Origin: Escherichia coli
GTDB taxonomy: Bacteria; Pseudomonadota; Gammaproteobacteria; Enterobacterales; Enterobacteriaceae
Assembly (NCBI RefSeq): GCF_030013595.1
Contig: NZ_CP122768.1
DNA length: 64,000 bases
Direction: 5' to 3' (one strand)
In this document: one piece after another, positions 6,549-48,678 of the stretch
Numbering within the stretch: the first letter of the stretch is position 1
Layout: every line of letters begins with the position of its first letter
The notes under the pieces: generated by a model
The model's database searches: none
Told to the model about the DNA's origin: nothing
What the model saw: only the letters and a program-made list of their open reading frames with translations
Program-made: the position numbers and the translations under genes

Positions 6549-7395
6549 GTTCCAGAATGTAGTGATTGTCACTATTGTCGGTTGGCTTGTGTTGTTTGTC
6601 TTTCTGCCCAACCTGATGATCATTGGCACCAGCTTTTTGACCCGCGACGACGCCAGTTTCGTCAAAATGGTCTTTACGCTGGATAACTACACGCGTCTGC
6701 TCGATCCGCTCTATTTTGAAGTGCTATTGCACTCGCTGAATATGGCGCTGATCGCCACCCTCGCCTGCCTGGTGCTGGGCTATCCTTTTGCCTGCTTTCT
6801 GGCGAAGCTGCCACACAAGGTGCGTCCGCTGCTGCTGTTTCTGCTGATTGTTCCGTTCTGGACCAACTCATTGATTCGTATCTACGGGCTGAAAATTTTC
6901 CTCAGCACCAAAGGCTATCTCAACGAGTTTTTGCTCTGGCTGGGCGTTATTGATACACCAATTCGCATCATGTTCACGCCCAGTGCGGTGATTATCGGTC
7001 TGGTTTACATTCTGCTACCGTTTATGGTGATGCCGCTGTACTCCAGTATCGAAAAACTGGATAAGCCGTTGCTGGAGGCGGCGCGCGATCTCGGTGCCAG
7101 CAAGTTGCAGACCTTTATCCGCATCATTATCCCACTGACGATGCCGGGAATTATTGCCGGATGTTTGCTGGTGATGCTGCCAGCGATGGGCCTGTTCTAT
7201 GTGTCCGACCTGATGGGCGGTGCGAAAAACCTGCTGATCGGTAACGTCATCAAAGTACAGTTCCTCAATATTCGTGACTGGCCGTTTGGTGCAGCCACCA
7301 GCATTACGCTGACTATCGTAATGGGCCTGATGTTGCTGGTTTACTGGCGCGCTTCTCGTTTGCTGAATAAGAAGGTGAGCGATATAGATAATTAA
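6532..7395 (+). CDS. potB: spermidine/putrescine ABC transporter permease with a prophage-derived altered C-terminus
   Basis: Polytopic permease ORF; the last codons (…KKVSDIDN) lie inside the prophage junction, whereas the native end (…KKVELE-stop, overlapping the potC start) is found at attR near 48670-48690. Confidence 0.85.
7364..7377. repeat. attL core: 14-bp direct repeat tgaataagaaggtg
   Basis: Identical 14-mer at 48665-48678 next to the integrase; lies within potB 3' codons. Confidence 0.75.
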
Positions 7396-7622
7396 TCCTT
7401 TATATTCAATGAAATAAGTTGGTTTTTAAAGGGTTTTATTGTTGAAGGCAACCGCGTTGTGTCTTTCACCAAAATCAATCAGTTGCGTTCTGGTTTTGGA
7501 GAATGTTTTTTGAGGCTTTTTGTTAAAGCCTGTTATGCATTGCCTCAATTAATAACCGTTTCCCCAGCCCTCCCAACCTTCAAAAGTCGGGAGGGTTCTA
7601 AACACCAGTTGCGATTGATTTA

Positions 7623-8195
7623 TTAGCCAATACCAAACGCTCGGATTGAACCCAAATCCTCCAGATTGTTCAGATCCTCTTTCATTTCACGCTGACGGCG
7701 ATAAATCTCGTCATTGCGATCGACCTGAGCCTGCGCCATTGCTGCCGCCAGCTCCTGAAGCTGTGCCATTGTCAGAGTGACAAGGTTATTTGCTGCATCC
7801 CCCCATCCCAGCGTTGACCGCGTACCTGCAACCTTTGTCGCCATTGCCACGGGCGCAATACGACTTATTGAGTCTGCACCACCATTCCAGGTACGACCGT
7901 TCCATTCGAACGTGAACGGCTGCGCCTCCTGTTCTGTGCGCCATGCTTCGATTTCCTGGCGTTTGGCGGCTTTTGCTGCTTCCAGCATTTCAGGTGATAC
8001 AGTGAACGGGGCTATATCCCCCCATTTACCGCTTTGCAGCTCCTGCCAAATTTGCTGGCCTGTTGTTGCTGTGTCTTCTGGTGTAGATGTGTAGGGGATG
8101 AAATCTTTCATCCCCTCAAATAACACTTCACAGTCAATTGCGCCATTCTCCAGCCTGCGGGCGTTTTTGATTTCTTTTATTTTTATCCCATTCAT
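7623..8195 (-). CDS. tail fibre assembly protein (Tfa)
   Basis: 190-aa ORF directly downstream of a fibre gene; Tfa/gpG-like architecture. Confidence 0.7.
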   Translation of the reverse strand: MNGIKIKEIKNARRLENGAIDCEVLFEGMKDFIPYTSTPEDTATTGQQIWQELQSGKWGDIAPFTVSPEMLEAAKAAKRQEIEAWRTEQEAQPFTFEWNGRTWNGGADSISRIAPVAMATKVAGTRSTLGWGDAANNLVTLTMAQLQELAAAMAQAQVDRNDEIYRRQREMKEDLNNLEDLGSIRAFGIG

Positions 8196-9598
8196 CAGGA
8201 AACTCTCACAAACAGACCGAAAATAAAATCGCTGGTCGCCTGAGTGCTGTTGCCCAGAGAGACATAGGCTCCCGAAAAGTGGCGTCCAGTATCCAGCACA
8301 TACCGTGGTGCTCCGTCATTCGACACTATAACAGCGCAGGGAATCAGAGTGCTGCCGCTTACGCTGTCACCACGTTTTATCGTATATTCATCAGTATTTG
8401 CTGCACGGTACGCGGCCTGAGTTAAGCCGCCAACTGCCACATCTCTGAATGGTACGTCGTACCACGGGCCAGCTATGTTATACAGCCATCTCGCACCATC
8501 TATCGCGGTTAAGTTTTGACTCAGGCATGTCCAGCGTATGTTCGTACTGTCCGCCCTGACCTCACAACAATACACGTCCTGATTAACCCCGTTAAAAATG
8601 ACAAACTTATCGCGCCTGTTTTGATTTTCATGCGTTGCTGTTTCCAGCATTTTTATCTCTACCTCTCCGCTAAAAACAACCCCTTCTATAATGTCCTTGG
8701 AATATGGGCCACCATATTGAACGACAAGATAGCGCCCCGGGGGAGTGGTCTGTACCCAAGAAGCAAATGTTGCTGATGTCGCGTATTTATCAAACTCCTT
8801 ACGTTGTGTGGGATACGCGCCATAACCGAAAGCTCCCGGAAGTGCCACACAACCTTCAGTTCGGTTGTAAATGTCTGTTTGTACATCCATCGTTGCAGCA
8901 CTTTTCAACCCCAGATTGTCTCGGGATTCCTGCTGAGCATCTTCCCCCTCTGCTGCAATTTCTGACAGGTGATTCGCCGTTTTCAGCGTTGCAGATAACG
9001 CAACATCAATATCATCTCTGGCCTGCTCTGCATCGGATGCGGCCTGTTTGGCGGCTTCAGCATCCTGCCTGACTTCTTCGGCGGTATCCTCAACCTGCGA
9101 GGCCAGCTGTTCAACGCGCTGCGTGTTTTCCTCCACAGCATTTGTATTCTGCTGAACATTATCTGCCAGCGTTTCAACCTGCTCTTTTATCAGAGCTGCC
9201 GCTTCAGCATGTTGCCCTGCCTGTCGTTCGCTTTCCGCTGCCGCTTCCGCGCTCTGCTGCGCCTGCACCACCAGTTCTTCGAACCGCTTAACAACATCTG
9301 GCTTCAGGTCGCCTTCATCGAGAGCGGTCAGGAAGTCGTTCAGCGTGCCGTGCTTTGAATCGTCGTAAACCGAAATATCACCGACACAATATTCTCTTTC
9401 AATACATGACCGAAGATAAACGTCATATCTTCCGGTCTGAGCCTCAAATGCATATTCTCCTGCCGGCCCCGTCACCACTGTTGCCACCGTTCTCATGACC
9501 ACTGCGGATGTATTCTGTCGGGCTTTCAGAATAATATGGTATCCGGACATGGGGAGTCCCGCACCATCCGTCAGCACACCCGAAATTAATACAGACAT
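8195..9598 (-). CDS. side tail fibre protein, lambda Stf-like N-terminus
   Basis: N-terminus (ISGVL.DG.G.P…LKAR.N.S…VY.DS.HGTLNDFL) resembles the lambda Stf N-terminal domain; acidic coiled-coil middle; followed by Tfa. Confidence 0.75.
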   Translation of the reverse strand: MSVLISGVLTDGAGLPMSGYHIILKARQNTSAVVMRTVATVVTGPAGEYAFEAQTGRYDVYLRSCIEREYCVGDISVYDDSKHGTLNDFLTALDEGDLKPDVVKRFEELVVQAQQSAEAAAESERQAGQHAEAAALIKEQVETLADNVQQNTNAVEENTQRVEQLASQVEDTAEEVRQDAEAAKQAASDAEQARDDIDVALSATLKTANHLSEIAAEGEDAQQESRDNLGLKSAATMDVQTDIYNRTEGCVALPGAFGYGAYPTQRKEFDKYATSATFASWVQTTPPGRYLVVQYGGPYSKDIIEGVVFSGEVEIKMLETATHENQNRRDKFVIFNGVNQDVYCCEVRADSTNIRWTCLSQNLTAIDGARWLYNIAGPWYDVPFRDVAVGGLTQAAYRAANTDEYTIKRGDSVSGSTLIPCAVIVSNDGAPRYVLDTGRHFSGAYVSLGNSTQATSDFIFGLFVRVS

Positions 9599-9622
9599 GT
9601 TTATTTCCTGATTCAGAAAACA

Positions 9623-10711
9623 TTAACCAAAATAATTGACGCCTTTTTTCTTGCCACTGGCTTTCCCCTTTGCAGAAATATCCGTGGTCAGTGACAGATT
9701 CAGCGTAAATCCCTGTCCCGGTACCAGTGAAAACTCCACAGACTCAGCCTGCCAGTGATGGTCCTCACGCACACCAAATCCCTGCGTGACAAAACGCATC
9801 TCCGCCCCTGCTTTCAGCAGTTCCGGCCTGCAGGGCAACGTTATCGTCATCTGGCGTCCGACTTTCTGCACACGTTTAACCTTCGACTCTGCACAGTGTT
9901 TTGCGGTGCCCTGGTCAGGCTGGGTAAACGGATGCCGCTTATCTGTTGACTCCACGTCAACTTTAACTTCACGTGTGCGTCCGTCACGGGCATCAAAATA
10001 CCGGACCCCAACTTTCCCGCTCTTTTTATCCCCCTTCGCACCACCCGCAGCGCCCTGTCGCTCACCTTCACGATAATCCCAGTCTGATACCATACCCGGT
10101 GTAATGGTTATCTCAGGCGCATTTCTGCCCCCCGTACTCTGTGATGCCCCGTATTCCAGAAATAACCAGTAGCCATTGGTCGGTTTACTGGTGGCGCCGT
10201 ACATACCTGCAATGCGGGACAAGAGGGCAGCATCAGATTCTGATGACTGCATCACCCACGGGATATGAATATCAGCAAGCACCGATGAGACGCGCGCCAC
10301 CAGATTATTTTCAGTGGCGATGGTGTTCACCAGGTCGCCCAGTGTGATATCGCTGAAAGCCCGGGTTTTCAGTGCGGTCACGTCTGCGCCATGTTTTGAC
10401 GCATTCATGGGGGCTGCGGTGGCATAAATGGTGAGCCGGCGGGGAGGACCACCGCTTGCCACCTGACAGACGGTAAAACTGCCTTTATTGACCAGATTTC
10501 CGTTGAACCCCAGTCCCAGCGTTAGCACCGCGCCTTTCGGTGGTAACGCCAGCGTCTCGCTGAACAGCGTTATCATCAGTTCATCGGACCGCTTTGTGGC
10601 TGCACCATTATCGGTATATCGCAGTTCAGCCAGCCCCCGTTTCAGGGCCTTCGTGATATCCTGGCCTTCCGCTGTCAGGCTGAAATCCGGCTGATATTCA
10701 TTCAGTCCCAT
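9623..10711 (-). CDS. tail protein D-like (P2 gpD / late control D family)
   Basis: 362-aa ORF in the P2 gene-order position after U and X. Confidence 0.6.
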   Translation of the reverse strand: MGLNEYQPDFSLTAEGQDITKALKRGLAELRYTDNGAATKRSDELMITLFSETLALPPKGAVLTLGLGFNGNLVNKGSFTVCQVASGGPPRRLTIYATAAPMNASKHGADVTALKTRAFSDITLGDLVNTIATENNLVARVSSVLADIHIPWVMQSSESDAALLSRIAGMYGATSKPTNGYWLFLEYGASQSTGGRNAPEITITPGMVSDWDYREGERQGAAGGAKGDKKSGKVGVRYFDARDGRTREVKVDVESTDKRHPFTQPDQGTAKHCAESKVKRVQKVGRQMTITLPCRPELLKAGAEMRFVTQGFGVREDHHWQAESVEFSLVPGQGFTLNLSLTTDISAKGKASGKKKGVNYFG

Positions 10712-10920
10712 AACTGAAACGTCTCCTTCACTTCCGGTTCATATACCCAGTCCGGCAACACGATTTCCACTCCCGACGGATAGACCGGACCAAGGTCAGC
10801 CAGCCCGGGATTGGCTTCCAGTACCGCCGCCAGTGACTGGTTAAGCCCGGCACTGCCATAGTGTCTCTGACAGATGTCATCCAGCATATCGCCGTCAGTG
10901 GTCCGCCAGTTTTTCGCCAT
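10702..10920 (-). CDS. tail protein X-like (LysM-like)
   Basis: 72-aa ORF between U-like and D-like genes; size and position. Confidence 0.6.
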   Translation of the reverse strand: MAKNWRTTDGDMLDDICQRHYGSAGLNQSLAAVLEANPGLADLGPVYPSGVEIVLPDWVYEPEVKETFQLWD

Positions 10921-11389
10921 AGTATTTCAGCTCCAGTGTGAACGTTTTGTTCTTTGGCGCCCCGCCGGGAAGAAAGGACGTGGTGTTATCTGAATAGGCG
11001 GTTGCCACGAAATACCCCATCACATCGCCTGTACTTGAGACCAGTAACTGCGGGGCCGGATTGTCATCCACCATCTGAACCAGCGTATCAAGGGCATCCA
11101 TTCCCACACCGTCACGAAATCCCGCATGCACCATGCCTTCAAGGGTTATTGTTCTGGCCCCCTTACCGGTATACTGCAGCAGGTCGTTTTTTCCGATAAG
11201 CTGCTGTTCATCCCATCGCCATTCCATAGTGCGCTTCATGGCGTTATAGGCTGCCGTATCAATACTGAATTCAAACTCACCAAACGACAGCATGACGCGG
11301 GAGGCGACATCCGTTAATGAACCCACCGCATCCCATGCTTCACGTTCAAGCCGGTTTACGCCCCAGCCCAGCAAATCCACCATGTTCAC
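10895..11389 (-). CDS. tail protein U-like
   Basis: 164-aa ORF immediately downstream of the tape measure gene, as in P2. Confidence 0.6.
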   Translation of the reverse strand: MNMVDLLGWGVNRLEREAWDAVGSLTDVASRVMLSFGEFEFSIDTAAYNAMKRTMEWRWDEQQLIGKNDLLQYTGKGARTITLEGMVHAGFRDGVGMDALDTLVQMVDDNPAPQLLVSSTGDVMGYFVATAYSDNTTSFLPGGAPKNKTFTLELKYYGEKLADH

Positions 11390-13044
11390 CCCCAGAATGC
11401 ATCACCATCGGTCATGCGGGAACGCTGACCAAAATTAATATCTCCCAGATTTTTCGTTACCCTGTCTGCCAGTTGTCCGGCATCCTCGCCGGGCTTCTGG
11501 GTGATGTTAAATTCCGCCCGTATCTGATACGTGGGTTTTACTTCCACCCGGCTGATACTGCCGGGGGTATGCTGAAGCGCTGAAAGGCGGTCAGCCTCCC
11601 CCGATGCGGGTTCCTGACGAGTTTTCTGTAGTTGATCGCGGGCAGCGCGAACACGCTCCCTCGCCCCATCAAAATCAGGTTCTTCCTTCGGTCCCAGCAA
11701 AGGATCGAGAAATGCATCAAACTTTTTATCGTCATGGTTCCAGGGGAGATAACCGCGGGTGTCTTTATAAGCCTGTACAACCTGTTTCGTCAGCTCCGGA
11801 TTTTTCCTGAGCAGTTCATCAAACCATTCACCCTGACCGTTTTTCTGCGCCACCGCTCTCGCCAGCTCAGGCGAACCCATTTTTGCCAGATATTCCAGCA
11901 CCTCTCGCCGGTCCTCCCGCGAATCATCCGCCAGCCCCCACTCAATGGCTTTCTGCGTTATTCCTGCAAGAACTTTTCCGAATTTCCACATCCACTCGGA
12001 CAAATCGATCAACGCCGGCAGGGCATCATCAAGGATAAATGCCTGAATCTTCTCAAGGCCACCCTCCTTAAACCAAGCCGCAAGATCATCCGTCACCTGT
12101 TGGATACGTGGCGCAAGCTCATTACCCAGTTGTCCGCTGATTTCATCAATGGAAGAACTCAAAACATTACGGAGATTTGACAGCGCCACATGCCCCTGAA
12201 CTGCGCCATCAGCCCCTTCTTTTGTCACCAGGTTATAGCGTTTCTGCTCACTGATAAGCTCCCGGAAGGTTTTTCCTGACAGACGCATCCAGGTCAGAAT
12301 TTTATTGGCCTCCCCCCCAAACAGCGCATCTGCCATCCCCGCCGCCTGCTGCTCATTCTCCACCTGCAGTAAGCGATCAAACAAAAATTCGACCTGTTCC
12401 TGGTTGTTTTTTCCGGCCATTACGCCCGCTTTCAGCCCCAGTTTACCGAATACCTCCTGAATGGCTCCTTTGTCCGTGGCACCATTATCATCGTCAAAAA
12501 CCTTGTTCCGGTATTCCTCAAACAGATCACCAATGTTTTCGCCGTTTAACCCCATCTGACGGCCCAGTGAATCCCACGCCGCATAGGTTTCGTAATCCAC
12601 CCCATAACTCCGGGCTATCCCTGCCCGCTCTGCCGTTTCCGAATTCCGGTTCAGTACCGCGCTGGCACCTGCTGCCAGCGTCAGCCCGGAACCAACAGAG
12701 AGCCCGAGTCCGGTTTTAAGAAATGTCCCTGCCCGTCCTTTCCAGCGTTCCAGGCGCTCTGCCCGTTCAAGCTGGCGATTAAATCGCTCCTGCTCCGCTG
12801 CAGCATCATTGATTTTCCGTTTCAGCTTTTCATACTGCTTTCGCAGATCGGTAATATCCTGCCCTGCCAGTACGCCAGCCTGAATTTTTCGCTTCAGTAC
12901 ATCCTGCTGACGCGTCAGGCGTGCCACTTCCTGTGTCGCACCAGCCAGACCTCGCTTCAGCCCCTCTGTCGATTTTTTCCACGACGGGTCAATAGTGCCG
13001 CCGATCCGGATATTCGCTCTGAGGTTATCGCCCACCGTTGCCAT
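11386..13044 (-). CDS. tail tape measure protein
   Basis: 552-aa ORF, coiled-coil-rich, positioned after the E/E' chaperone. Confidence 0.8.
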   Translation of the reverse strand: MATVGDNLRANIRIGGTIDPSWKKSTEGLKRGLAGATQEVARLTRQQDVLKRKIQAGVLAGQDITDLRKQYEKLKRKINDAAAEQERFNRQLERAERLERWKGRAGTFLKTGLGLSVGSGLTLAAGASAVLNRNSETAERAGIARSYGVDYETYAAWDSLGRQMGLNGENIGDLFEEYRNKVFDDDNGATDKGAIQEVFGKLGLKAGVMAGKNNQEQVEFLFDRLLQVENEQQAAGMADALFGGEANKILTWMRLSGKTFRELISEQKRYNLVTKEGADGAVQGHVALSNLRNVLSSSIDEISGQLGNELAPRIQQVTDDLAAWFKEGGLEKIQAFILDDALPALIDLSEWMWKFGKVLAGITQKAIEWGLADDSREDRREVLEYLAKMGSPELARAVAQKNGQGEWFDELLRKNPELTKQVVQAYKDTRGYLPWNHDDKKFDAFLDPLLGPKEEPDFDGARERVRAARDQLQKTRQEPASGEADRLSALQHTPGSISRVEVKPTYQIRAEFNITQKPGEDAGQLADRVTKNLGDINFGQRSRMTDGDAFWG

Positions 13045-13470
13045 AACACTGCTTCCTCTCTTCCGCCTCTGCCAGCATTATTGCCACAAAATCCTCATAC
13101 GGCAGTGCCATCACATCTCCGGGTGACCACCCGAACCATACTCCGGCACGCCGTATCGCCATCAGGATGTTTTCTTCTTCCGCCGGACCGGCGGCAGCAA
13201 AAAAACATTAAACTGCCGCTCCAGGGCCAGGTAATCACACGCTTCCATGTTCATCATGTCTGCCGCGTCCATCCCGCACAGACCGGCAATCATATCCAGA
13301 TCAGCCTCTGCTTCCGGTTTGGTACTCCGGCGATGCAACAGACGATCGCGGACGGTGGGCGCACGCATGGTGACGTGCGTGATCGTCTGTCCTGATGCGG
13401 TGACATACGGCACGGATAACACAATTTCCACGCAGCTGGCAGGAACACTGTTTTTTTCCGACATAAGCAT
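13025..13470 (-). CDS. predicted E+E' tail chaperone fusion via programmed -1 frameshift
   Basis: Minus-strand heptamer t-ttt-ttg at about 13198-13204; the -1 frame stays open for ~57 codons to a stop at about 13025, overlapping the tape-measure start as in P2 E/E'. Confidence 0.45.
13162..13470 (-). CDS. tail assembly chaperone E-like
   Basis: 102-aa ORF between tube and tape measure genes; contains slippery T_TTT_TTG near its 3' end. Confidence 0.65.
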   Translation of the reverse strand: MLMSEKNSVPASCVEIVLSVPYVTASGQTITHVTMRAPTVRDRLLHRRSTKPEAEADLDMIAGLCGMDAADMMNMEACDYLALERQFNVFLLPPVRRKKKTS

Positions 13471-13522
13471 CTCCTAAAAAAAGAAAAGGCGGCCTGAGCC
13501 GCCTGAATGGCAGATCCCCGGA

Positions 13523-14041
13523 TTAAACCCGGATGATTTTTTTCAGATCCGACAGAACATTAACGCCGTTAATACGACGTACAAATTCCTCCGGAATAAT
13601 GCAGATGGTTTCCAGGCCATCGACAGCCTGACGGTAATAACTCAGTGACATTTCCACTGTCACCGAAGCCTCTGCCTGTGATGTTGCCGGACGTGCATCC
13701 GGCGTGATACTGGTGATCATCCCCTGCAGGGTTTCCACCTGTCCGCTGGTCGCATTTCCCACCCGATAAGCCTGGCGCACAACAATCTCCGGCGAATAAA
13801 GCCCGGCCTGCAATCCCAGCAGCGTAAGCATGGCAACATCATAACCATAAATCTTAAACGAACAGGTCAGCGCTTCCATGCCGTCATCCACTGCCACCGG
13901 TGCATCCATTGCGCCGGTTTTGATATCCACTGTCGTGATATTAATGGCAGGCGGCGTGTATTCATGCGCACCCTGAAGGCGGATCCCGCCAGGAAGAAAT
14001 AACGCCCATGCACGCAACAGTTTTTTTTCACCCGTAATCAT
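13523..14041 (-). CDS. tail tube protein (FII-like)
   Basis: 172-aa ORF directly downstream of the sheath gene. Confidence 0.75.
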   Translation of the reverse strand: MITGEKKLLRAWALFLPGGIRLQGAHEYTPPAINITTVDIKTGAMDAPVAVDDGMEALTCSFKIYGYDVAMLTLLGLQAGLYSPEIVVRQAYRVGNATSGQVETLQGMITSITPDARPATSQAEASVTVEMSLSYYRQAVDGLETICIIPEEFVRRINGVNVLSDLKKIIRV

Positions 14042-15513
14042 ACCGTCAGTTCCTCCAGCGCCAGTTTATTGTTAATCATTGCCCGCAGTGTCAGGCGCTC
14101 CAGTGGTGACTTCGGCCCAAAGTCATAATCGATATACAACTGCCCTGCCGCCAGGGTTTCTGCTGTATTCAGTTCATCATTCAGCCAGGCGCTGCCACCG
14201 TGGATCGCACCCAGATTTTTAAGCTGACGCATATAGGCATTAATGCTGCCAAGAATGTCGTCTGCCACATCCCGATCAAGCGGGCGATCGACATAAGGCA
14301 ACATGGCCTCCTGGATACTGTCCTCAATCACATCTGCAGTGCGACGTACCGGTTCAAAGCGCCACTGACTGTGGGATGTGCACAGACGGTTACCCCAGTG
14401 TTTAAAACCGTCATGGCGAATAATGGTGGAGATATTTTCCATGTTCAGCAGGTTTGCCGTGCAGTTCTGCTCCCCGAGAATAAACGTATCCACCTGCTCC
14501 AGACCGGTGATATTCATCACGTCCTGGTTTGATTTGGACCACCACCACCCTTTTTCATAATCAATACGGGCACGCAGCCCGGCAGCACGAGCCGAATATG
14601 GACGAAATACCGTTTGCCCGCTGTCATCCGTCACTGACACGCGCGGACGCAGCAGCTCCACACGTCCGCCAAATGACGCGCGCCGCTGAACCACATCCTG
14701 CGGCGTTGCCATTGAGGGCGAGTCAATATAGGCCACAGCCCGCAACTTCGCGGCATACGTTTCCAGCGCCTTTGCCACGCCATCATCCTCACTGTACCCC
14801 GTGGCAATGAGGATGCGCGGTTGATAGCCTGTCACGCCCTTACTTTCTGTCAGCGCCTCCATGGCCTGAATCACCGCCGCACGCTGTTCGGCCTCTTTCG
14901 CCTTTGCTTTACTTTCTGCGCGCACCACAATCACCAGCGCACCAGTCTGGTCAAAAATATCACGCAGGGCCGGGTATAATGTTCCGGCTGTGCCCAGTTT
15001 CCCCGCCTGAGTAATGGCCCCTGCCACCACCACCGGTGTGTTGACCGGGAACGCCTCATCTTCCCCGCCGGATAACGTCAGGCTGAACGGCGACACCACT
15101 TTATTTTCAGCGCCTCCTGCATTCAGGGTGCTGGCAGCCGCCGTCACAGGCGAATCCCCCAGCGCATTCACCACTTCAGTCACACAATCCACCGTGGCGT
15201 TAACCTGGCTGTGTTCGTCCGTCCCCAGTGTTATCGTCAGGGTCGTACCTTTCAGCGAGGCCACTGTCTGCGCGTTTTGTTCCGTGGCAGCCACGGCAAC
15301 AACCGAAATCTTATTACCGACCCGACCTTCCTGTTTCGCCGTGAAATCCAGCGCCGTTCCCAGCAGCCAGGAACCGGCTGTGCCGGAAGCGCACACACCA
15401 CCAGAGGCGTCCGGCGCTGTCCCCACCAGGCCAATCACTGCCGTGGAGATGGTTTGCACGGCAACCGTGCCTGTCGTCAGTTCAATGGTTTCAACACCAT
15501 GTAATCCGGACAT
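14038..15513 (-). CDS. contractile tail sheath protein (FI-like)
   Basis: 491-aa ORF preceding the tube gene; sheath size class. Confidence 0.8.
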   Translation of the reverse strand: MSGLHGVETIELTTGTVAVQTISTAVIGLVGTAPDASGGVCASGTAGSWLLGTALDFTAKQEGRVGNKISVVAVAATEQNAQTVASLKGTTLTITLGTDEHSQVNATVDCVTEVVNALGDSPVTAAASTLNAGGAENKVVSPFSLTLSGGEDEAFPVNTPVVVAGAITQAGKLGTAGTLYPALRDIFDQTGALVIVVRAESKAKAKEAEQRAAVIQAMEALTESKGVTGYQPRILIATGYSEDDGVAKALETYAAKLRAVAYIDSPSMATPQDVVQRRASFGGRVELLRPRVSVTDDSGQTVFRPYSARAAGLRARIDYEKGWWWSKSNQDVMNITGLEQVDTFILGEQNCTANLLNMENISTIIRHDGFKHWGNRLCTSHSQWRFEPVRRTADVIEDSIQEAMLPYVDRPLDRDVADDILGSINAYMRQLKNLGAIHGGSAWLNDELNTAETLAAGQLYIDYDFGPKSPLERLTLRAMINNKLALEELTV

Positions 15514-15567
15514 ACATTTCTCCCATAAAAAAACCGCCCTCAGGCGGTCAGATGATTAACTTCTTTT

Positions 15568-16113
15568 TCAGGTATTTTGTGGCTGCTCAGGCCAGCTAAT
15601 ATTGTTGTAAGTGGTCTTATCCGTAATAGCGCTGAAATCCATCGCCTGCAGCGATTTCGCGTAAATGCGGTACGCTTTGAGCTTTTCCCTGTCTTCGTCA
15701 CTGATTAATCCCAGCAGCAGGTCTTTTTCCCATTCGCTGGTCATGATGCTGACCTGTTTTAACAGTGCATCACGCTCATCTTCCGCTTTAAGTTTGTAGT
15801 CAAAAACAAATTCATCATTGCGGTAGAACCAGTATCCCGACGCCTCAATGCGACGATTAGCGGTAATATCCGGCAACTCAATCACACTTTTATTTTCCGG
15901 GCAGATTGAGGTGATGTCTTTTCCGACCCAGACCACTTCGCCAGTTTCAACATAAATAACTTTCAGAGTGTCTGGCTGAAATTTTTCCTGGGCTTCGTGC
16001 CATTCCTGACCATCATCGGAGAACAGCCACAATAAAAATTTATGCTGTCGTGCCAGCTGGTATTGCTCAATTGTTTTAGGGTTTTGTGCCGTAAGATTTT
16101 TTAAGTGCATCAT
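15568..16113 (-). CDS. tail fibre assembly protein (gpG-like)
   Basis: 181-aa ORF downstream of fibre gene H. Confidence 0.65.
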   Translation of the reverse strand: MMHLKNLTAQNPKTIEQYQLARQHKFLLWLFSDDGQEWHEAQEKFQPDTLKVIYVETGEVVWVGKDITSICPENKSVIELPDITANRRIEASGYWFYRNDEFVFDYKLKAEDERDALLKQVSIMTSEWEKDLLLGLISDEDREKLKAYRIYAKSLQAMDFSAITDKTTYNNISWPEQPQNT

Positions 16114-16115
16114 GA

Positions 16116-32686: not shown

Positions 32687-32687
32687 T

Positions 32688-36108: not shown

Positions 36109-36264
36109 TTACTCCTCAGGTTCGTAAGCTGTGAAGACAGCGACCTCCGTCTGGCCGGTTCGGATTCGTACCTCGCAGAGGTCTTTCCTCGTTACCAGTG
36201 CCGTCACTATGACGGTTAAACAGATGACGATCAGGGCGATTAACATCGCCTTTTGCTGCTTCAT
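36109..36264 (-). CDS. hok: Hok/Gef-family type I toxin (51 aa), absent from the ORF track
   Basis: Hand translation: MKQQKAMLIALIVICLTVIVTALVTRKDLCEVRIRTGQTEVAVFTAYEPEE; SD aggag upstream; overlapping short mok-like frame; hallmark Hok TM domain and conserved Cys. Confidence 0.85.
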   Translation of the reverse strand: MKQQKAMLIALIVICLTVIVTALVTRKDLCEVRIRTGQTEVAVFTAYEPEE

Positions 36265-36554
36265 AGCCTGCTTCTCCTTGACCTTTCGGTCCGTAAGAGG
36301 CTAATCTCTATGTGTCGCATAGATATGGCCTCAGATTAATGTTAAGCGTCTTGCAGGACGCGTAATGTTAACTGGGGCTTTTCTCTATCTGCCTTTTGGT
36401 GTTCATGCCTGAGGCAGATAGCCTCAAGCACCCGCAGCAATTCTACTTAACTCTCCTTTTCCCGCAAACCGTTTTTATCCCCATCGGCAAATCGAATACA
36501 CCACCAACGCCACCGCCATCGCAATTCCTACTGTAGTGAATGCCTCAGGCCAGG

Positions 36555-38957: not shown

Positions 38958-39250
38958 TGTGTCTTCTCCTGGAAAATAACCGCATGCCCCAGTTTCTCCG
39001 CCAGTGCCAATTCTGCCTTAGCACCTGCTGACCGCTGCCAGCCTTTCAGCATGTAAATCGCATCCACACAACGAATCATTGCCATGCAAATATCCATGTA
39101 GTGTGGCTGTGTCAGCCCGTCTGGAAGTACTGCCGGGTTTAAGACTGTATGCCCTTCCCGTTTCAGTTCCTCTTCCGCCTTGTGGAACGCCTCACGGTTG
39201 AAATTTTTATACCCGGTCATCGGACCAGCGATATAAACCCTCACCCTCAC
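38954..39250 (-). CDS. DUF4406-like protein (nucleoside deoxyribosyltransferase-like fold)
   Basis: 98-aa ORF; VYIAGPM…G N-terminal motif. Confidence 0.45.
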   Translation of the reverse strand: MRVRVYIAGPMTGYKNFNREAFHKAEEELKREGHTVLNPAVLPDGLTQPHYMDICMAMIRCVDAIYMLKGWQRSAGAKAELALAEKLGHAVIFQEKTQ

Positions 39251-39642
39251 GCCATCACCTCCTGAAAATTACCCTGATAAAACGCCAGCACTCGCTGCAT
39301 AACCTCACTCTTCCGGCACTCGCGGCAGATTATGTTCTGGCTCCTGTCGTAGCGGCGTATCTCTCCGTCTGGTAACTTTCGAATCAGCGTCTGGTCAGTT
39401 GTTTTCTCCGGCGTCTTACGCCATTCGCGATACGTCTGCTCTGACGTAAAAACACCGTATTTACCGGACATGTATAAATCGCCACAAGCCAGTACATCCA
39501 CAAGGCAGCGTCGGACCGAATGCCAGCCTGCTCCCGTCGCTCTCTCCAGTTGCGACATCGTCATGCGTCCATTTTTGCGTACCAATCCGATAATTCGTGC
39601 CTTCAGCTCTTCCCGCTGTTCGGGTGTAAAAGGTTTCGCCAT
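39247..39642 (-). CDS. hypothetical protein
   Basis: 131-aa ORF upstream of the replication genes. Confidence 0.35.
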   Translation of the reverse strand: MAKPFTPEQREELKARIIGLVRKNGRMTMSQLERATGAGWHSVRRCLVDVLACGDLYMSGKYGVFTSEQTYREWRKTPEKTTDQTLIRKLPDGEIRRYDRSQNIICRECRKSEVMQRVLAFYQGNFQEVMA

Positions 39643-39671
39643 AAACCCTCCCGGTAAAATTACTTATCAAC

Positions 39672-40337
39672 TCAAACAAAACCTGCCGCTTTCCTGCGTT
39701 CATATTCCTGTTTCAGCAACTCAATTGGAGTTGGCCCCGACGGGCGTTCTGGTGCTGCCAGTTGCCTACGGACGGGTGGAACACTCAGTCCGTTACCAAC
39801 ATGCTTTGCCCATTTCGCTAGTTGCCGTTCTGCAAGCCGTTTTAACTCCCCTTCGGTCATCTGGCGCTCAATCCCCTTTGAACGCAGCTCGAGACAAATG
39901 TGATACAGCACAGGCTGAGACCACGGGTATTTATCGCTTCCGTCGTATCGCCAGGACTCGTTGCGCCAGCGTCGGTACTCCTCCATCACGTTATCCACCG
40001 TCAGACCAAATGGATTTGCCCCGCTCTCCGAAATCAGCGCCACAAACTCAGCCAGGTCCGGAGGCCATGTTTCACCCGCCCGGCAGCGGTCCATGCACTG
40101 GCGGCAGACCTGCCGGATTTGCTGCTCAGTCATCGCGCCAATCTGTGCAATCCAGAGCTTCGAAGGTGCGGCCCCGTTCTTCTGGGTCCAGCGGTTCGAA
40201 TAAACCTCCCCCATGAGTTCCCACAGCTTCCAGGCCGTTTCCGTCGCTGATAAATCCGTTTTCACGTTCCCACTGCTCACGTGCTGCCCGAATTTCCTGA
40301 ACTGCCCGTGATGCGGTGCCACCTGGTGCTGCTGCAT
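39672..40337 (-). CDS. replication protein P-like (helicase loader)
   Basis: Central and C-terminal region resembles lambda P (FVA…, YPWS…, RINRGE-like region); start uncertain because of overlap with the O ORF. Confidence 0.65.
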   Translation of the reverse strand: MQQHQVAPHHGQFRKFGQHVSSGNVKTDLSATETAWKLWELMGEVYSNRWTQKNGAAPSKLWIAQIGAMTEQQIRQVCRQCMDRCRAGETWPPDLAEFVALISESGANPFGLTVDNVMEEYRRWRNESWRYDGSDKYPWSQPVLYHICLELRSKGIERQMTEGELKRLAERQLAKWAKHVGNGLSVPPVRRQLAAPERPSGPTPIELLKQEYERRKAAGFV

Positions 40338-41166
40338 GGTTTACCCCCTTGCTGACTGGTTTAACCTGTGCCCTGACGTGATTTACGTGACGGGCGAATT
40401 TCTGCTCCCACTGAACCTGCGTGAACACTTTGCCCTCATCGCTCCAGTAATCCCGGAATGCGGCAAGTTCAGCAGGTGTAAATTCCGGCTCCGGCAAAGC
40501 CATCCCCCACAACGCAGCCCGTCGTCGAAAATCCCGTGACGGATGCCAGCTATCGGTCATCGGAAATTTTCCGATGGGTTCGCTCAGGCCATCCAGGAAT
40601 ACGGGTGGCACTGCCTGTAACGACAAAACTTCCTGCTCACTGGTCGGAGCACTCTCGCGTGCGTTATGTGTGGGGTTTAGATCTTTGGGTTCCTTTGGGT
40701 TCCGTGATCCGTTTTTGGGTGTCTTTGATGGAAAATTTGGGTGTCTTTGGTTATTTTCCATGCAGCTAAGAGTTCCGTTTTTGGGTCTGTTTTGTGCTGA
40801 AACATAACCATTTTCGGTACTGTTTTTATTAACAGTACCAATTTTACCCACCTTTAAAGACTCCCGTTTTTGGGTGTATTCAGGCTCGGCAACACTTTCT
40901 TCTACACCGATAAGTCGGTACACCACAATTTGCTTTGTTCTGCCTTTTCTCTCACCGGTATCAACAATTAACCCAATCTCCATCAGGTGTCGTAAGCTGT
41001 CCTGCACAGTCTTTTTGTTCAGTTCCGTTACTTCTGCCAGTGCAGATACAGACGGGTATGCACACAAATCGGCACCGCACATATCAGCAAGCCAGGTCAA
41101 TACTGACTTACTGGATGAACTGCCGGTTTTCACCTTTTTAGCCCATCGTAGTGCATCGATACTCAT
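40126..41166 (-). CDS. replication initiator O-like (N-terminal HTH origin-binding domain)
   Basis: Track ORF 40126-41241; start placed at MSIDALRWAKK; iteron array lies inside the gene. Confidence 0.65.
   Translation of the reverse strand: MSIDALRWAKKVKTGSSSSKSVLTWLADMCGADLCAYPSVSALAEVTELNKKTVQDSLRHLMEIGLIVDTGERKGRTKQIVVYRLIGVEESVAEPEYTQKRESLKVGKIGTVNKNSTENGYVSAQNRPKNGTLSCMENNQRHPNFPSKTPKNGSRNPKEPKDLNPTHNARESAPTSEQEVLSLQAVPPVFLDGLSEPIGKFPMTDSWHPSRDFRRRAALWGMALPEPEFTPAELAAFRDYWSDEGKVFTQVQWEQKFARHVNHVRAQVKPVSKGVNHAAAPGGTASRAVQEIRAAREQWERENGFISDGNGLEAVGTHGGGLFEPLDPEERGRTFEALDCTDWRDD
40670..40880. repeat. candidate replication origin: iterons (tttgggt-type repeats) plus AT-rich inverted repeat inside the O-like gene
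   Basis: Repeated …ctttgggttcc/gtttttgggtgtc… motifs and palindrome ggtactgtttttattaacagtacc; lambda ori lies inside O in the same manner. Confidence 0.55.
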
Positions 41167-41689
41167 ACGAACCCCTGGCAGACATTTGTTTATCTGCAAA
41201 GTAATATTGGTATTGCTGACGATACGCGTGCTTGAAAGCAATAGCTTTTTCTATAAGCTCGTCAGTCTCACGTTCCACAACAGCTGGATCCGCAAAAAGC
41301 AGCCCGGACTCCACCACATCGCCATATTCTTTGTTTAACCCGGCGATCATGTACGTAATGCTTTTTCCGTCAGTAATTTCACAATACAACCTGAAATCGC
41401 TGATCCGGATAGCCTCCATAATTGCCGGAATCAGCGCCGTGAATTTTTCCCGCTTATCCCTGGTGTCGATAGCTTTCCAGCGTTCGAATATCTTCACCCG
41501 GTTAACGCCCAGCGCCCGTTGATCAACCGCGCCATCATCAAACGTGACGCGTTGAACATCGATGTTCGGGCGTTCTTTCAGAGCCCAGAAGGCTTCCGTG
41601 ATTAATATCGTCGCCTGCTCCTGTGTCATTCCTGGTCGGCACACCCAGGCATCCAGAGCCTCACAAACCTGTTCAGGGGTGATTTTCAT
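41138..41689 (-). CDS. hypothetical early protein (YdaT/cII-position)
   Basis: 183-aa ORF between the cro-like and O-like genes. Confidence 0.4.
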   Translation of the reverse strand: MKITPEQVCEALDAWVCRPGMTQEQATILITEAFWALKERPNIDVQRVTFDDGAVDQRALGVNRVKIFERWKAIDTRDKREKFTALIPAIMEAIRISDFRLYCEITDGKSITYMIAGLNKEYGDVVESGLLFADPAVVERETDELIEKAIAFKHAYRQQYQYYFADKQMSARGSYEYRCTTMG

Positions 41690-44639: not shown

Positions 44640-47102
44640 ATGAGCGCTGATAAAGAAGAAATTGCACTATATTACGAAGCCAAAAATGACAAAGTCAGAA
44701 AACGCCTTGGGATTAAAGGCGGTTTTTACTGGCGCACAGCAAAAAAATTATCGATTGCAATATCACGCGGTGTTGTCGCAATGGACGATGCCGGATTTGA
44801 CGAAGAGGATTTTAAAAAACCTGTTCGCGTCCATTTACCCGTTGTGAATGACCTTCCTCCGGAAGGCGTGTTTGATACCGAATTCTGCAACCGATACGAA
44901 AAAGGCGGGGAAGATGGTATCACAATGGTACTTATCGCGCCCTCTGTTCAGGACAAACCAGCCAGCACTGACAATACCAACGTCAACGGTGAAGACATGA
45001 CTGAGATTGAGGAGAATATGCTCCTGCCAGTTTCAGGTCAGATTCTGCCTGTTCGATGGCTGGCGCAACACAACAGCGAAAAACCGATCACGCACGTTTC
45101 GCGGGACGAACTGCGCGCATTACATAACGCACAGGATGAAAAACTTCCCGCCGTTACCGCGCTGGCCATCTCAAATAAAGCAGCGCAACTCGAACCACTG
45201 GAAATTCGCGATCTCCACAAACTGGTACGCGACACTGACAAAGTTTTCCCTAATCCTGGTAATTCAGACCTGGGACTGATGACCGCTTTTTTCGAAGCAT
45301 ACCTGGGCGCTAACTACACCGATCGCGGTCTGCTTACAAAAGAGTGGATGAAGGGAAATCGTGTTTCACGTATCACCCGCACGGCTTCCGGCGCTAATGC
45401 TGGCGGCGGGAACAAAACCGATCGCAATCCGAATTTAGTACACACCTTCGATACGCTGGATGTGGAGATTGCAGCAGCCACACTTCCGATGGATTTTAAT
45501 ATTTATGAAATTCCGGGCAGCGTTTATCGTCGCGCAAAAGAAGTCGTCCGGAAGAAAGAAAGTCCGTTCAAAGAATGGTCCGCAGCACTTCGCGCAATCC
45601 CGGGTATCCTGGATTATTCCCGTGCCGCTATTTTTGCACTTATCCGGAGCGCCCACCCTGAACTTTACCTCTACAGGGTACGCCTTCAGGTGTATATCAA
45701 CGCCCACTTAACGGAGACTGATCACGAGAATCCTACCGAGGAAACTCTCGCTGCTGCACGACATACACCGGAAAAAGATATCCTGGAAGAAGTTAACCGC
45801 GAACTGGCTGCTGCTAAACACGAAACAGAAGAAGAAAAAAATAATGAGGAAAAATCACAACCGTCTGACGCAATGGCAGATGAACAGGCAACGACTGAAA
45901 CAATGGAGCCGGATACAACTGAACATCGCCAGGACACGCAATCGCTGGATACTCAGGCGCAGATAGATCCGGTTAATCAGGTAAAAGTTACCGCTGACGA
46001 AGTAAACAAAATTATGCAGGCAGCCAATATCAACCAGCCTGACGCCAATCAGTTGCTTGCTGTATCACGTGGTGAATTTGTTGCAGGGATTAGCGACCCG
46101 AATGATCCGAAATGGGTGAAGGGGATTGAAACCCGCGATTCAGTGAATCAGAACCAGCAAGAAATGGAACAGAACGACCAGAAAGCGGAAAAAAACAGCC
46201 CAAATGCGTTACAAAACGAGCCAGAAACGAAACAACCTGAGCCAGTAGCGCAACAGGAATCGGAAAAAGTCTGCACCGCCTGCGGTCAGAGCGGTGGCGG
46301 CAGCTGCCCTGATTGTGGCGCGGTGATGGGCGACGCAACATACCAGGAAACATTCGATGAAGAGAATCAGGTTGAAGTTCAGGAAAATGATCCGGAGGAA
46401 ATGGAAGGCGCTGAACATCCACACAAGGAGAATGCTGGCAGCGCTCAGGACCACGCCAGCGATAATGAAACTGGCGAGACGGCAGATCCCTTAATTGCGG
46501 TGAACGGTCATCACGTTATCACATCCACCAGCAGAGTGTGGTACCACCTGATGATCGACCTTGAAACAATGGGAACCAACACCAATGCGCCCATCGTGGT
46601 TATTGGTGCGGTTTTCTTCGACCCACAAACAGGGGAAATCGGGCCAGTATTTTATATCGTTATCAGTCTGACTGACGCAATGAATACAGGGGCTGTTCCT
46701 GACGGTGGAACCATCGAATGGTGGCTGAAGCAGTCCAGTGAAGCCAGAGCTGCCATTTTAACAGACCAGGTAAAACTGAAGGATGCCCTTTCGCGGTTTC
46801 GGGAGTTCATCAACGAATACTCAGATGAAAAATTCGTTCAGGTATGGGGTAATGGTGCAACTTTCGATAACGCAATTTTGCGCACCTCATACGAACGTCT
46901 GGACATCCCCTGCCCGTGGCGCTACTACAACGATCGCGATGTACGCACAATCGTTGAGCTGGGAAAAACCATCGGTTTTGATGCCAGAACAGCTATCCCG
47001 TTCGAAGGTGTACCCCACAATGCACTGGATGATGCCCGTCACCAGGCGAAATACGTTTCAGTAATCTGGCAAAAACTGATCCCGAGTCAGGCTGATTTTT
47101 AA
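44640..47102 (+). CDS. large multidomain protein: N-terminal domain of unknown function, acidic linker, CxxC-x-CxxC zinc ribbon, C-terminal DnaQ-like (DEDDh) 3'-5' exonuclease domain
   Basis: 820-aa ORF; C-terminus has DLET…, FDNAIL and HNALDDA motifs in exonuclease order; zinc ribbon CTACGQSGGGSCPDCG; long E/Q/D-rich linker. Confidence 0.6.
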   Translation: MSADKEEIALYYEAKNDKVRKRLGIKGGFYWRTAKKLSIAISRGVVAMDDAGFDEEDFKKPVRVHLPVVNDLPPEGVFDTEFCNRYEKGGEDGITMVLIAPSVQDKPASTDNTNVNGEDMTEIEENMLLPVSGQILPVRWLAQHNSEKPITHVSRDELRALHNAQDEKLPAVTALAISNKAAQLEPLEIRDLHKLVRDTDKVFPNPGNSDLGLMTAFFEAYLGANYTDRGLLTKEWMKGNRVSRITRTASGANAGGGNKTDRNPNLVHTFDTLDVEIAAATLPMDFNIYEIPGSVYRRAKEVVRKKESPFKEWSAALRAIPGILDYSRAAIFALIRSAHPELYLYRVRLQVYINAHLTETDHENPTEETLAAARHTPEKDILEEVNRELAAAKHETEEEKNNEEKSQPSDAMADEQATTETMEPDTTEHRQDTQSLDTQAQIDPVNQVKVTADEVNKIMQAANINQPDANQLLAVSRGEFVAGISDPNDPKWVKGIETRDSVNQNQQEMEQNDQKAEKNSPNALQNEPETKQPEPVAQQESEKVCTACGQSGGGSCPDCGAVMGDATYQETFDEENQVEVQENDPEEMEGAEHPHKENAGSAQDHASDNETGETADPLIAVNGHHVITSTSRVWYHLMIDLETMGTNTNAPIVVIGAVFFDPQTGEIGPVFYIVISLTDAMNTGAVPDGGTIEWWLKQSSEARAAILTDQVKLKDALSRFREFINEYSDEKFVQVWGNGATFDNAILRTSYERLDIPCPWRYYNDRDVRTIVELGKTIGFDARTAIPFEGVPHNALDDARHQAKYVSVIWQKLIPSQADF

Positions 47103-47163
47103 TGTTCAACCGTCGCCAGTTGTCGTTGGTATTCTGCAACTGGCGCGTTCCGGAGTGATAACC

Positions 47164-47433
47164 ATGAGCGAACAGTACCTGATAACGCTCGACGAGTGGA
47201 AACCAAAACGGTTCAGTCTCCCAATAACAAACACCACCCTGGTGAAATACGGAAAACTAGGATACATCGTTCCAAGACCACAAAAAATTCGTGGGCGTTG
47301 GCTGATAGATCGCCGGGCAGTATTTGTTGGACCTGGTGAAACAGGAATTGCGCCGGAAATTCATACTGGCGATGATGATGCACTGAAGGAGATTTTAACT
47401 CATGTCACCGAGGCCACGAAAAAACAGCACTGA
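47164..47433 (+). CDS. xis: excisionase (Xis-like)
   Basis: Small ORF just upstream of int, overlapping its start; winged-helix-like segment resembling lambda Xis. Confidence 0.6.
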   Translation: MSEQYLITLDEWKPKRFSLPITNTTLVKYGKLGYIVPRPQKIRGRWLIDRRAVFVGPGETGIAPEIHTGDDDALKEILTHVTEATKKQH

Positions 47434-48520
47434 CGTAGCCGGTCTTTACGAAAAGTTTGATCGCAGAACTGGCAGGGTTTACTACCAGTATAAAAACCCT
47501 GTGACTGGAAAATTTCACGGACTCGGAACAGACAAAGGTAAGGCAGAAAAAATCGCTTCCACAGCCAATCAGCGAATAGCTGCAGCAGAGGCTGAATATT
47601 TCATGCGCAAAATTGATGAAAGTCCGTCAGCAACAAAACGTCGGGGTATCAGATTAAAGGCATGGGTTGATCGATATCTGAAAATACAGGACGCGCGACT
47701 GAAAAATGGAGATATTGCAGCTACAACTCACAAAGAAAAAGCCCGAATGGCTGCATACCTGGTTTCCCGTCTGGGAAACCACCCATTGAAAGAACTGGAA
47801 GTAAGAGACTTTGCATTAATACTGGATGAGTGGCTGGATAAAGACATGGTCAGCACAGCGAGAGTAAATCGCGGATTATGGGTTGATATTTATAAAGAAG
47901 CACAGCATGCAGGGGAAGTTCCTCCTGGATGGAATCCTCCGGAGGCTACCCGTAAACCGATCCCTAAAGTAACCAGAGCCAGGCTCACCATGGAAGACTG
48001 GCAAAAAATTTACAATGCAACGCCTGAAAAACACTTTATCCGTAACGCAATGCTTCTTGCGATTGTTACTGGTCAGCGCCGTGATGACATTTGCCACATG
48101 CGTTTTTCAGATGTGTGGAACGAACACTTGCATATCACCCAGGGAAAAACCGGAATGCGTCTGGCGTTACCGCTTACACTACGCTGTGATGCCATTGGGA
48201 TAACGTTAAAAGAAGTTATTGATGGGTGCCGAGACAGAATATTAAGTCCATATCTAATCCATAGTCGGCACCAGAAACAACCGAAGCCGATGAGTAAAGA
48301 CAACCTGAGCGACTACTTTGCCAAAGCACGGGATCTGGCTGGGATAATTCCACCAGCAGGAAAAACTCCGCCAACATTTCATGAACAACGCTCTCTATCA
48401 GAACGGCTGTACCGTGCACAGGGTATCGATACAAAAACATTACTAGGACATAAAGTCCAGGCAACCACCGATCGCTATAACGATACTCGAGGTCAGGAAT
48501 GGGTTAAGTTGGTTATTTGA
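47402..48520 (+). CDS. int: tyrosine integrase (lambda Int family)
   Basis: 372-aa ORF with catalytic-domain motifs (R…, HxxR-like LLGH, C-terminal Y in TDRYND) next to attR. Confidence 0.9.
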   Translation: MSPRPRKNSTDVAGLYEKFDRRTGRVYYQYKNPVTGKFHGLGTDKGKAEKIASTANQRIAAAEAEYFMRKIDESPSATKRRGIRLKAWVDRYLKIQDARLKNGDIAATTHKEKARMAAYLVSRLGNHPLKELEVRDFALILDEWLDKDMVSTARVNRGLWVDIYKEAQHAGEVPPGWNPPEATRKPIPKVTRARLTMEDWQKIYNATPEKHFIRNAMLLAIVTGQRRDDICHMRFSDVWNEHLHITQGKTGMRLALPLTLRCDAIGITLKEVIDGCRDRILSPYLIHSRHQKQPKPMSKDNLSDYFAKARDLAGIIPPAGKTPPTFHEQRSLSERLYRAQGIDTKTLLGHKVQATTDRYNDTRGQEWVKLVI

Positions 48521-48559
48521 CAAACACCATATGGAATATCCGTCACCATCTCAGGAAAA

Positions 48560-48620
48560 AAGTGTTGTAAAATGCGTGGCCTAGTTTTGGGGAAACGTTT
48601 TGGAGAGATTTTGGAGAAAG
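48560..48620. promoter_or_regulatory. candidate integrase arm-type binding repeats (ttttggRga x3)
   Basis: gttttggggaaac gttttggagagat tttggagaaagg between int and attR; similar ggttttggagaat on the attL arm near 7470-7500. Confidence 0.4.
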
Positions 48621-48664
48621 GAAAAAATTGAATAAATTCAAAATCCTGAAAGTGTCCCGCCTTA

Positions 48665-48678
48665 TGAATAAGAAGGTG
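48665..48678. repeat. attR core: 14-bp direct repeat tgaataagaaggtg
   Basis: Identical to 7364-7377; followed by the native potB 3' end (gtggaactcgaatga). Confidence 0.75.

Follow-up and report, generated by a model that had tools for sequence, protein, structure and literature searches.

A complete-looking lambdoid prophage at the 3′ end of potB splits the pot operon of an Escherichia coli strain and supplies a substitute PotB terminus

We analyzed a stretch of 64,000 nucleotides of Escherichia coli DNA (RefSeq assembly GCF_030013595.1, contig NZ_CP122768.1; hereafter, the window) in which the potABCD operon is interrupted between potB and potC. With high confidence, positions 7364-48678 can be regarded as one lambdoid temperate prophage, inserted by a lambda-family tyrosine integrase through recombination between phage attP and an attB located within the final potB codons. 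Both sites share the core TGAATAAGAAGGTG, and the phage arm next to the core brings replacement codons and a stop, as in other phages that integrate into genes. PotB remains full length, with a short acidic tail in which SDIDN replaces ELE, and potC keeps its start together with the ribosome-binding site within the duplicated core. As a further consequence, potCD is detached from the potA promoter and now lies directly 3′ of the co-oriented int gene.

The initial annotation of this DNA had placed a 14-bp direct repeat at the two ends of the element. The 14-mer TGAATAAGAAGGTG does have exactly two copies in the window, one at 7364-7377 and one at 48665-48678, in the same (+) orientation. Allowing one mismatch added no further match in the window, where 0.04 matches would be expected by chance. 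Identity between the two copies is confined to the 14 bp and ends on both sides. The features found at the junctions are the following:

6532..7395, + strand: potB′, a hybrid gene in which host potB runs as far as the core and the phage adds five codons and a stop, 287 amino acids (aa) (NCBIfam PotB equivalog NF007044)
7364..7377, + strand: att core at the int-distal junction (left in the window), where the empty-site alignments break
48664..48690, + strand: relic of the native potB end, ATG AAT AAG AAG GTG GAA CTC GAA TGA
48665..48678, + strand: att core at the int-proximal junction (right in the window), which includes the Shine-Dalgarno-like AAGGTGG of potC
48687-49481, + strand: potC (open reading frame (ORF) list; RefSeq annotation of homologous junctions)
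49478-50524, + strand: potD (ORF list; RefSeq annotation of homologous junctions)

The left copy lies within the last codons of potB, inside the hybrid ORF 6532-7395. The right copy stands beside int and ahead of the native potB end: 144 bp separate it from the int stop at 48520, and after it comes GAACTCGAATGA, the native end of potB, whose TGA overlaps the potC ATG at 48687. Both locations are those proposed by the initial annotation, which had also suggested an alignment against E. coli genomes that lack the insertion. For this comparison, an artificial empty site was made by fusing 6864-7377 to 48679-49200 via a single core, and was used as a query against 5426 complete E. coli genomes. 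The construct aligned end to end with an annotated, unbroken potB-potC junction in 3800 of these genomes, while in the remaining ones the alignment splits at query positions 501 to 514, that is, at the core. Three empty sites that were read directly (L008, L013 and L014) contain one copy of the 14-mer each, followed by GAACTCGAATGA. The core is hence repeated at both junctions of the prophage and single in the empty sites of relatives, as befits an attB within potB. Neither a contiguous block without repeats nor repeats lying away from the junctions was encountered in the relatives, as the empty sites break at the core.

Concerning the host flanks (6864-7377 and 48679-49200), identity of at least 99% was found in only 110 of 5435 matching records, with the rest at 95-99%. 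The host therefore has a minority allele at potB-potC.

At the left junction the potB reading frame stays open and acquires a phage-encoded terminus of similar length. Positions 7378-7395 (AGC GAT ATA GAT AAT TAA, encoding SDIDN and a stop) are phage-supplied, and the 287-aa product ends in KKVSDIDN, while native PotB (285 aa) ends in KKVELE; the initial annotation had described the same replacement. The hybrid protein scores 548 bits against an NCBIfam cut-off of 348, and we infer that it would be functional. The exact PotB′ and Int proteins are already present in public databases, under the names PotB and phage integrase. Across the cluster members and other lysogens, the PotB tails read SDIDN, SDISD, SELDD, NELDD, RELDD, SEIGD and (A)TEIDN; the last type is found in O157:H7 SS NE 1040-1 (L002, 2210-3360), where PotB ends in KKATEIDN and the type III effector gene espK adjoins the distal junction. 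All of the tails consist of five residues past the core-encoded Val (or Ala), end at the same stop codon and follow the pattern x-[D/E]-[I/L]-x-[D/N]. The retention of tail length and acidity by diverged arms suggests selection for a working permease; constraints on the DNA of the att site could, however, yield the same pattern.

At the right junction, potC retains its ATG and the Shine-Dalgarno-like AAGGTGG because both are in or after the duplicated core. In agreement with the initial annotation, the overlap of the potB stop with the potC start is physically broken by the prophage, which measures 41,301 bp (one core counted) and lies between potAB and potCD. A phage-supplied A before the right core creates an ATG and, with it, an 8-codon ORF (MNKKVELE*) whose stop lies on the potC start. 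This A was found in all the E. coli lysogens read, while a C occupies the position in a Salmonella relic described below, which has no ATG-initiated ORF of this kind. A role of the small ORF as a translational-coupling device was considered and rejected: potC possesses a Shine-Dalgarno sequence but the small ORF lacks one, and the Salmonella relic is without the ATG. We treat it as incidental.

The genes and sites involved in recombination are located at the two ends of the element:

47155..47433, + strand: excisionase (phrog_629, E 5e-26)
47402..48520, + strand: lambda Int-family tyrosine integrase of 372 aa, directed towards potC (PDB 1z1b; Pfam)
48521..48664, + strand: int-proximal att arm, with three tandem TTTTGGNGA motifs at 48585-48593, 48598-48606 and 48609-48617
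7378..7622, + strand: int-distal att arm, with TTTTGGNGA at 7466-7474 (− strand) and 7494-7502 (+ strand)

Alignment of Int with lambda Int (PDB 1z1b) extends over residues 26-371 with an E value of 3e-54. Residues R226, K249, H327, R330, H350 and Y359 align with lambda R212, K235, H308, R311, H333 and Y342; in other words, the R-K-H-R-H-Y catalytic hexad is intact, and Pfam PF00589 (Phage_integrase) matches residues 194-363. The arm-binding side of the lambda Int family is also represented, as Pfam PF09003 (Arm-DNA-bind_1) matches residues 1-64 with an E value of 7e-21 and putative sites are present in both arms. TTTTGGNGA has 10 matches in the window, 5 of them inside the two att arms, a pattern that would be expected for arm-type Int sites. 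In two other potB prophages, L002 (O157:H7) and L003, the distal arms are otherwise diverged, yet AAAATCAA.CA.TT.C..TCT..TTTTGGAGAA is found at the same distance from the core (~+131). The distal arm contains a hairpin, CCCTCCC..GGGAGGG, at 7568-7595, and folds more stably than shuffled sequences (z = −3.9). An element similar to lambda sib/tI after potB′ was considered and rejected: the hairpin has no T-run on either strand, and the arm past ~140 bp is unconserved in other potB phages. A scan for intrinsic terminators after potB′ was likewise negative.

An exact search of IMG/VR with the predicted attP junction retrieved one 45-kb contig, UViG_2534681703_000014 (L012; match at 124-149, − strand). 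In this contig the int end, the three-motif arm, the core and an L003-type distal arm are all contiguous, which is the arrangement of attP. A close relative that has this integrase thus occurs in the unintegrated configuration.

Other potB lysogens have the same core except for single-base variants in some, and such variants help to delimit the crossover. The int-proximal core of L001, L004 and L006 is TGAATAAAAAGGTG, with an A at position 8, while position 8 is a G in the distal core of L001, in L002 and L003 (other strains) and in all three empty sites. Because A8 is found in int-proximal cores only, it can be considered phage-derived, with the exchange to its right. The distal core of O157:H7 (L002) is TGAATAAGAAGGCA, which ends in GGCA and places the exchange to the left of position 13. 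Although the examples are few, strand exchange probably occurs at or near AAGG (positions 9-12 of the core). Int-proximal cores were read as TGAATAAAAAGGTG or TGAACAAAAAGGTG; the core polymorphisms used were those at L001 49378, L004 816, L006 1681, L007 816 and, for the distal core of O157:H7, L002 1815.

A trivial explanation would be that the repeat is a chance match and that it flanks ancestral chromosomal DNA or a different type of island. The only point in its favor is that the repeat is short. The number of matches expected by chance is far below the two observed, in thousands of genomes the empty-site comparison breaks precisely at the repeat, int and xis adjoin one of the copies within a full lambdoid gene order, and attP is found in the related contig L012. 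Repeat statistics, empty sites with a single core and the attP relative were considered sufficient to discard this explanation, which is exceedingly improbable. As for integration by the phage, nothing was found in this analysis to argue against it.

How common is this arrangement was examined with an 851-bp query spanning the int-att-potC junction, counted at a coverage of at least 80% in the same set of complete genomes. The junction was detected, with 94-99.5% identity, in 1599 of the 5426 genomes (~30%), which are nearly all of those with a split empty-site construct. The distal arm is more variable: it is fully common to only 45 genomes, and the others share ~32 bp or ~140 bp. At least 80% of the late half of the prophage is present in 64 complete E. 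coli genomes, with identity up to 99%, while the share of the early half stays at or below 65% in every complete E. coli genome of the set. Common modules have thus been joined here into a new mosaic. A syntenic prophage occupies the same site in STEC383, and RefSeq names its 287-aa product PotB.

The site, which ranks among the most frequent prophage sites of E. coli, has been named before. Its occupant in uropathogenic E. coli CFT073 is known as phi-CFT073-potB (PMC4632033), PP_potB of O157:H7 shows frequent gain or loss (PMC9997748), and potC is listed as an insertion site of Shiga toxin (Stx) phages in Shiga toxin-producing E. coli negative for the locus of enterocyte effacement (PMC8065619). 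These elements use the same site and, in the genomes inspected, the same int/att module. In contrast, the cargo and morphogenesis modules differ among potB-site prophages: the element studied here has a P2-type contractile tail, DicA/DicC immunity, four tRNAs and hok/sok, and carries neither stx nor espK. Altogether, the element is an ordinary member of a very common, already named class, the lambdoid prophages with a lambda-family Int at the potB att site. For annotation purposes, the region can be labeled as a potB-site lambdoid prophage and its 287-aa PotB as a hybrid host/phage product. A point of modest interest is that potCD are cut from the potA promoter in ~30% of complete E. coli genomes and in the Salmonella enterica locus read. 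In Salmonella, a link between polyamine uptake and virulence has been reported (PMC3340349, PMC11299824).

The Salmonella locus (S. enterica GCA_031641955.1; L009, 3833-5510) has an islet with the sifA gene between potB and potC, and identical copies of TGAATAAGAAGGTG on both flanks. PotB ends there in SDISD, and the split in the operon falls on the base pairs also affected in E. coli. Unlike the E. coli prophage, the islet is a ~1.65 kb remnant without int, xis or phage genes, and carries sifA, an effector gene of Salmonella pathogenicity island 2. Its potC-proximal side retains a 23-nt sequence, CGTTTTGGAGAGATTTTGGAGAA, which corresponds to the tandem arm-type block and is identical to that of modern E. 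coli phages, compared with ~70% identity in the neighboring relic sequence. With the same 14-mer and CGTTTTGGAGAGATTTTGGAGAA, the islet has the look of a degraded insertion by a member of this int/att family. The sifA paper of Stein et al. from 1996 reportedly mentions 14-bp direct repeats. Interruption of potABCD by sifA has been described for serovar Typhimurium, in which deletions of potAB and potCD have transport phenotypes and potCD complements (PMC3340349, PMC11299824). These data would make an altered PotB tail and a split operon compatible with a working transporter in Salmonella; by analogy, E. coli lysogens are likely to have one as well.

The gene content of the interval supports the initial view of a complete-looking ~41-kb prophage: by PHROGs and NCBIfam profiles it is a single element with a full gene set, and all the modules of a lambdoid temperate prophage follow one another in order from 48520 to 7623. 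Starting at the right junction, the succession is int, xis, a RecE-type exonuclease, a DicB-region block, DicA/DicC immunity and a cII-like gene; an O-like initiator, a P-like loader, Ren, a nin-type region with hok/sok, DUF968/HNH, RusA and a Q-like gene; and four tRNAs, two holins, an M15 endolysin, small and large terminase, a W-like adaptor, portal, S49 protease/scaffold, decoration protein, major capsid protein, FI, neck genes and the contractile tail (baseplate V/W/J/I, fiber and assembly protein, sheath, tube, tape measure, U, X and D), with a second fiber pair adjoining the left junction. Key proteins match their profiles near full length, and neither an insertion sequence nor a truncation was seen in the prophage interval. 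PADLOC and Pfam searches on the unassigned prophage ORFs detected no defense system. The features are listed below, on the − strand and assigned with PHROGs unless another strand or source is given:

44640..47102, + strand: RecE-type exonuclease, 820 aa
41138..42384, both strands: immunity region (PHROGs, NCBIfam)
41977-42384, + strand: DicA-type repressor, divergent from cro (NCBIfam DicA, 237 bits, above cut-off)
41673-41900: DicC-type cro (NCBIfam DicC, 168 bits, above cut-off)
41138-41689: cII-like gene
40126-41241: O-like initiator
39672-40337: P-like helicase loader
39247-39642: Ren-like gene (replication region, 39247..41241)
36109..36433: hok/sok type I toxin-antitoxin module in the nin region (Rfam RF01794 sok at 108 bits, gathering score 59); the product of the Hok ORF 36109-36264 is MKQQKAMLIALIVICLTVIVTALVTRKDLCEVRIRTGQTEVAVFTAYEPEE
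34027-35085: DUF968/HNH
33660-34025: RusA
32974-33669: Q-like antiterminator
32454..32763: tRNA cluster Gly-TCC, Thr-TGT, Lys-TTT and Met-CAT, between Q and the lysis genes (ARAGORN; Rfam tRNA)
30606..32027: lysis cassette, with an ORF at 30606-30956 downstream
31602-32027 and 31338-31574: two holins
30958-31341: M15 endolysin
20494..29312: lambda/phage-21-type head and packaging module, including neck, head-closure, FI, decoration protein and W
28764-29312: TerS
26876-28834: TerL
25095-26666: portal
23489-25105: S49 protease/scaffold
22017-23045: major capsid protein
7623..20497: P2-type contractile tail module (near full-length PHROGs matches; RefSeq annotation of the syntenic STEC383 prophage)
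14038-15513: tail sheath
13523-14041: tail tube
within 7623..20497: other tail genes, namely two fiber/assembly pairs, gpD-like, X, U, tape measure and baseplate I/J/W/V

The head and terminase genes share 75-77% DNA identity with phage 21 and lambda-like phages. The closest tail sheaths among deposited phages, those of Hafnia phage yong2 and Citrobacter phage Chris1, show ~60% protein identity, with 62% as a maximum.

The weaknesses of our interpretation do not concern integration but its functional part, and four points weigh against the latter. Two of them have to do with the phage cycle:

(i). The DicA-type repressor matches a helix-turn-helix family only, and no LexA-like cleavage domain was detected in it; SOS inducibility is therefore uncertain.

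(ii). A search for lambda cos (GGGCGGCGACCT, with up to 2 mismatches) gave no meaningful match near the terminase genes.

The other two have to do with the expression of potCD:

(iii). No consensus sigma-70 promoter was found on the + strand from 47000 to the potC ATG.

(iv). Lambda-type int genes are usually poorly expressed in a lysogen, and read-through into potC could hence be weak.

Points (i) and (ii) raise the possibility that the prophage is cryptic and non-inducible, complete only in looks, a fixed island that never yields attP or particles. A DicA-type repressor is also that of the defective Qin prophage, no deposited phage is close over the tail module, as judged from the sheath, and a search of the phage collection for a packaged relative with the same int gave only two matches, both of which are prophage cut-outs that include potC and potD. 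However, the structural, lysis, replication and recombination genes are all full length in comparison with their profiles, the catalytic hexad of Int is intact, and arm-type motifs are kept in both att arms. In addition, a relative with the same int is found in attP configuration (L012), and PP_potB of O157:H7 is often gained or lost (PMC9997748). A cryptic element is an unlikely explanation on these grounds, though one that deserves serious weight.

Points (iii) and (iv) bear on the fate of potCD after insertion. The potC ATG is 166 bp downstream of the co-oriented int. The proposal of the initial annotation, that potCD would depend on read-through or on a promoter inside the prophage, is a logical one and fits this arrangement. 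A scan of the interval between the int stop and the potC ATG detected no terminator-like site. When potC promoters were sought by eye, only weak 7/12 candidates and a TAAAAT hexamer without a −35 were seen, and no promoter was called. With neither a terminator nor a consensus promoter between int and potC, we infer that the simplest source of the potCD transcript would be read-through from int or from the early-left operon; alternatively, the arm itself may contain a weak promoter. In the Salmonella relic, a scan for promoters and terminators upstream of potC gave nothing convincing, and nothing direct was found in the literature on potCD expression in lysogens.

One could imagine instead that integration is polar and leaves potCD essentially silent, and that the host, without PotABCD spermidine uptake, relies on synthesis and on other transporters. 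Such an outcome would fit the 41 kb that separate potCD from the potA promoter, the missing consensus promoter at the prophage end upstream of potC, and the normally weak expression of lambda-type int in lysogens. Several observations point in the opposite direction. The site is occupied in ~30% of complete E. coli genomes, lysogens and 2 of the 3 empty-site strains inspected share one and the same PotC (WP_000580316.1), and no terminator-like site separates int from potC. That the PotB tails remain alike in length and character although the arms have diverged suggests that a working transporter has been selected for. Furthermore, the same split is fixed in Salmonella, where potCD is still needed for transport phenotypes (PMC3340349). 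Silencing of potCD is improbable in view of these observations.

A more speculative idea is that the att arms have been shaped to keep the pot operon working, with the distal arm encoding an acidic PotB tail of conserved length and the int-proximal arm, which contains the block CGTTTTGGAGAGATTTTGGAGAA, doubling as a promoter or leader for potCD. If so, the Salmonella relic would have been kept for this function in the host. We consider this idea quite improbable.

Comparison with known systems places the element close to lambda in its recombination module. Int is a near full-length homologue with an arm-binding N-domain and the catalytic residues, int lies by attP, and xis overlaps it upstream. 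Lambda has three arm-type sites in the int-side arm (P′) and two in the other (P); the putative sites described here follow the same distribution, three int-proximal and two distal. The core has 14 bp, compared with 15 bp in lambda, and the arm-type motif and core sequences are unrelated to those of lambda. Another difference is that attB is not intergenic but lies in the 3′ end of a coding gene internal to an operon. In this respect the element resembles e14 and phage 21, which integrate into icd and bring replacement codons, and Rac, which integrates into ttcA: a phage arm supplies a substitute gene end, and the host gene stays open. Integration and excision of Rac alter the TtcA terminus (PMC4632033). 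Unlike the icd and ttcA cases, however, only five codons are replaced in potB, and the position of the target within an operon creates a polarity problem for potCD.

Additional observations were made on individual prophage loci. The syntenic STEC383 prophage has only the Gly and Thr tRNAs, compared with the four found here. A 216-aa ORF at 42739-43389 (+ strand), just 3′ of the DicA-type repressor and co-oriented with it, matches phrog_2151 (function unassigned) and has no Pfam, NCBIfam or PADLOC match; it is a candidate for a moron expressed during lysogeny. Within the S49 protease/scaffold gene, a 138-bp tandem repeat (3.7 copies, 80% matches) spans 23614-24122 (− strand) and makes segments of the protein recur, which is visible in the PHROG results as 4-5 matching stretches. 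A 144-aa + strand ORF at 30170-30480 had no family match and is probably spurious. On the − strand of the same interval, 3′ of the endolysin region, two small ORFs are found. One would encode a membrane peptide (MKGIEVETPASLDL...IWAVRWW) and the other a lipoprotein-like product with an LLVGC lipobox (MTRKHWTHRMPRTAAKWVAILVPFLLVGC...), and they may be spanin-like or a moron of the Bor/Cor type. Lastly, a perfect 9-nt tandem repeat, ACAAACAAT, is present in 11.3 copies at 35835-35936; it sits on the − strand within a 53-codon ORF (35782-35943) that reads MR(LYC)x11..., and the tract is likely to be hypervariable or prone to slippage.

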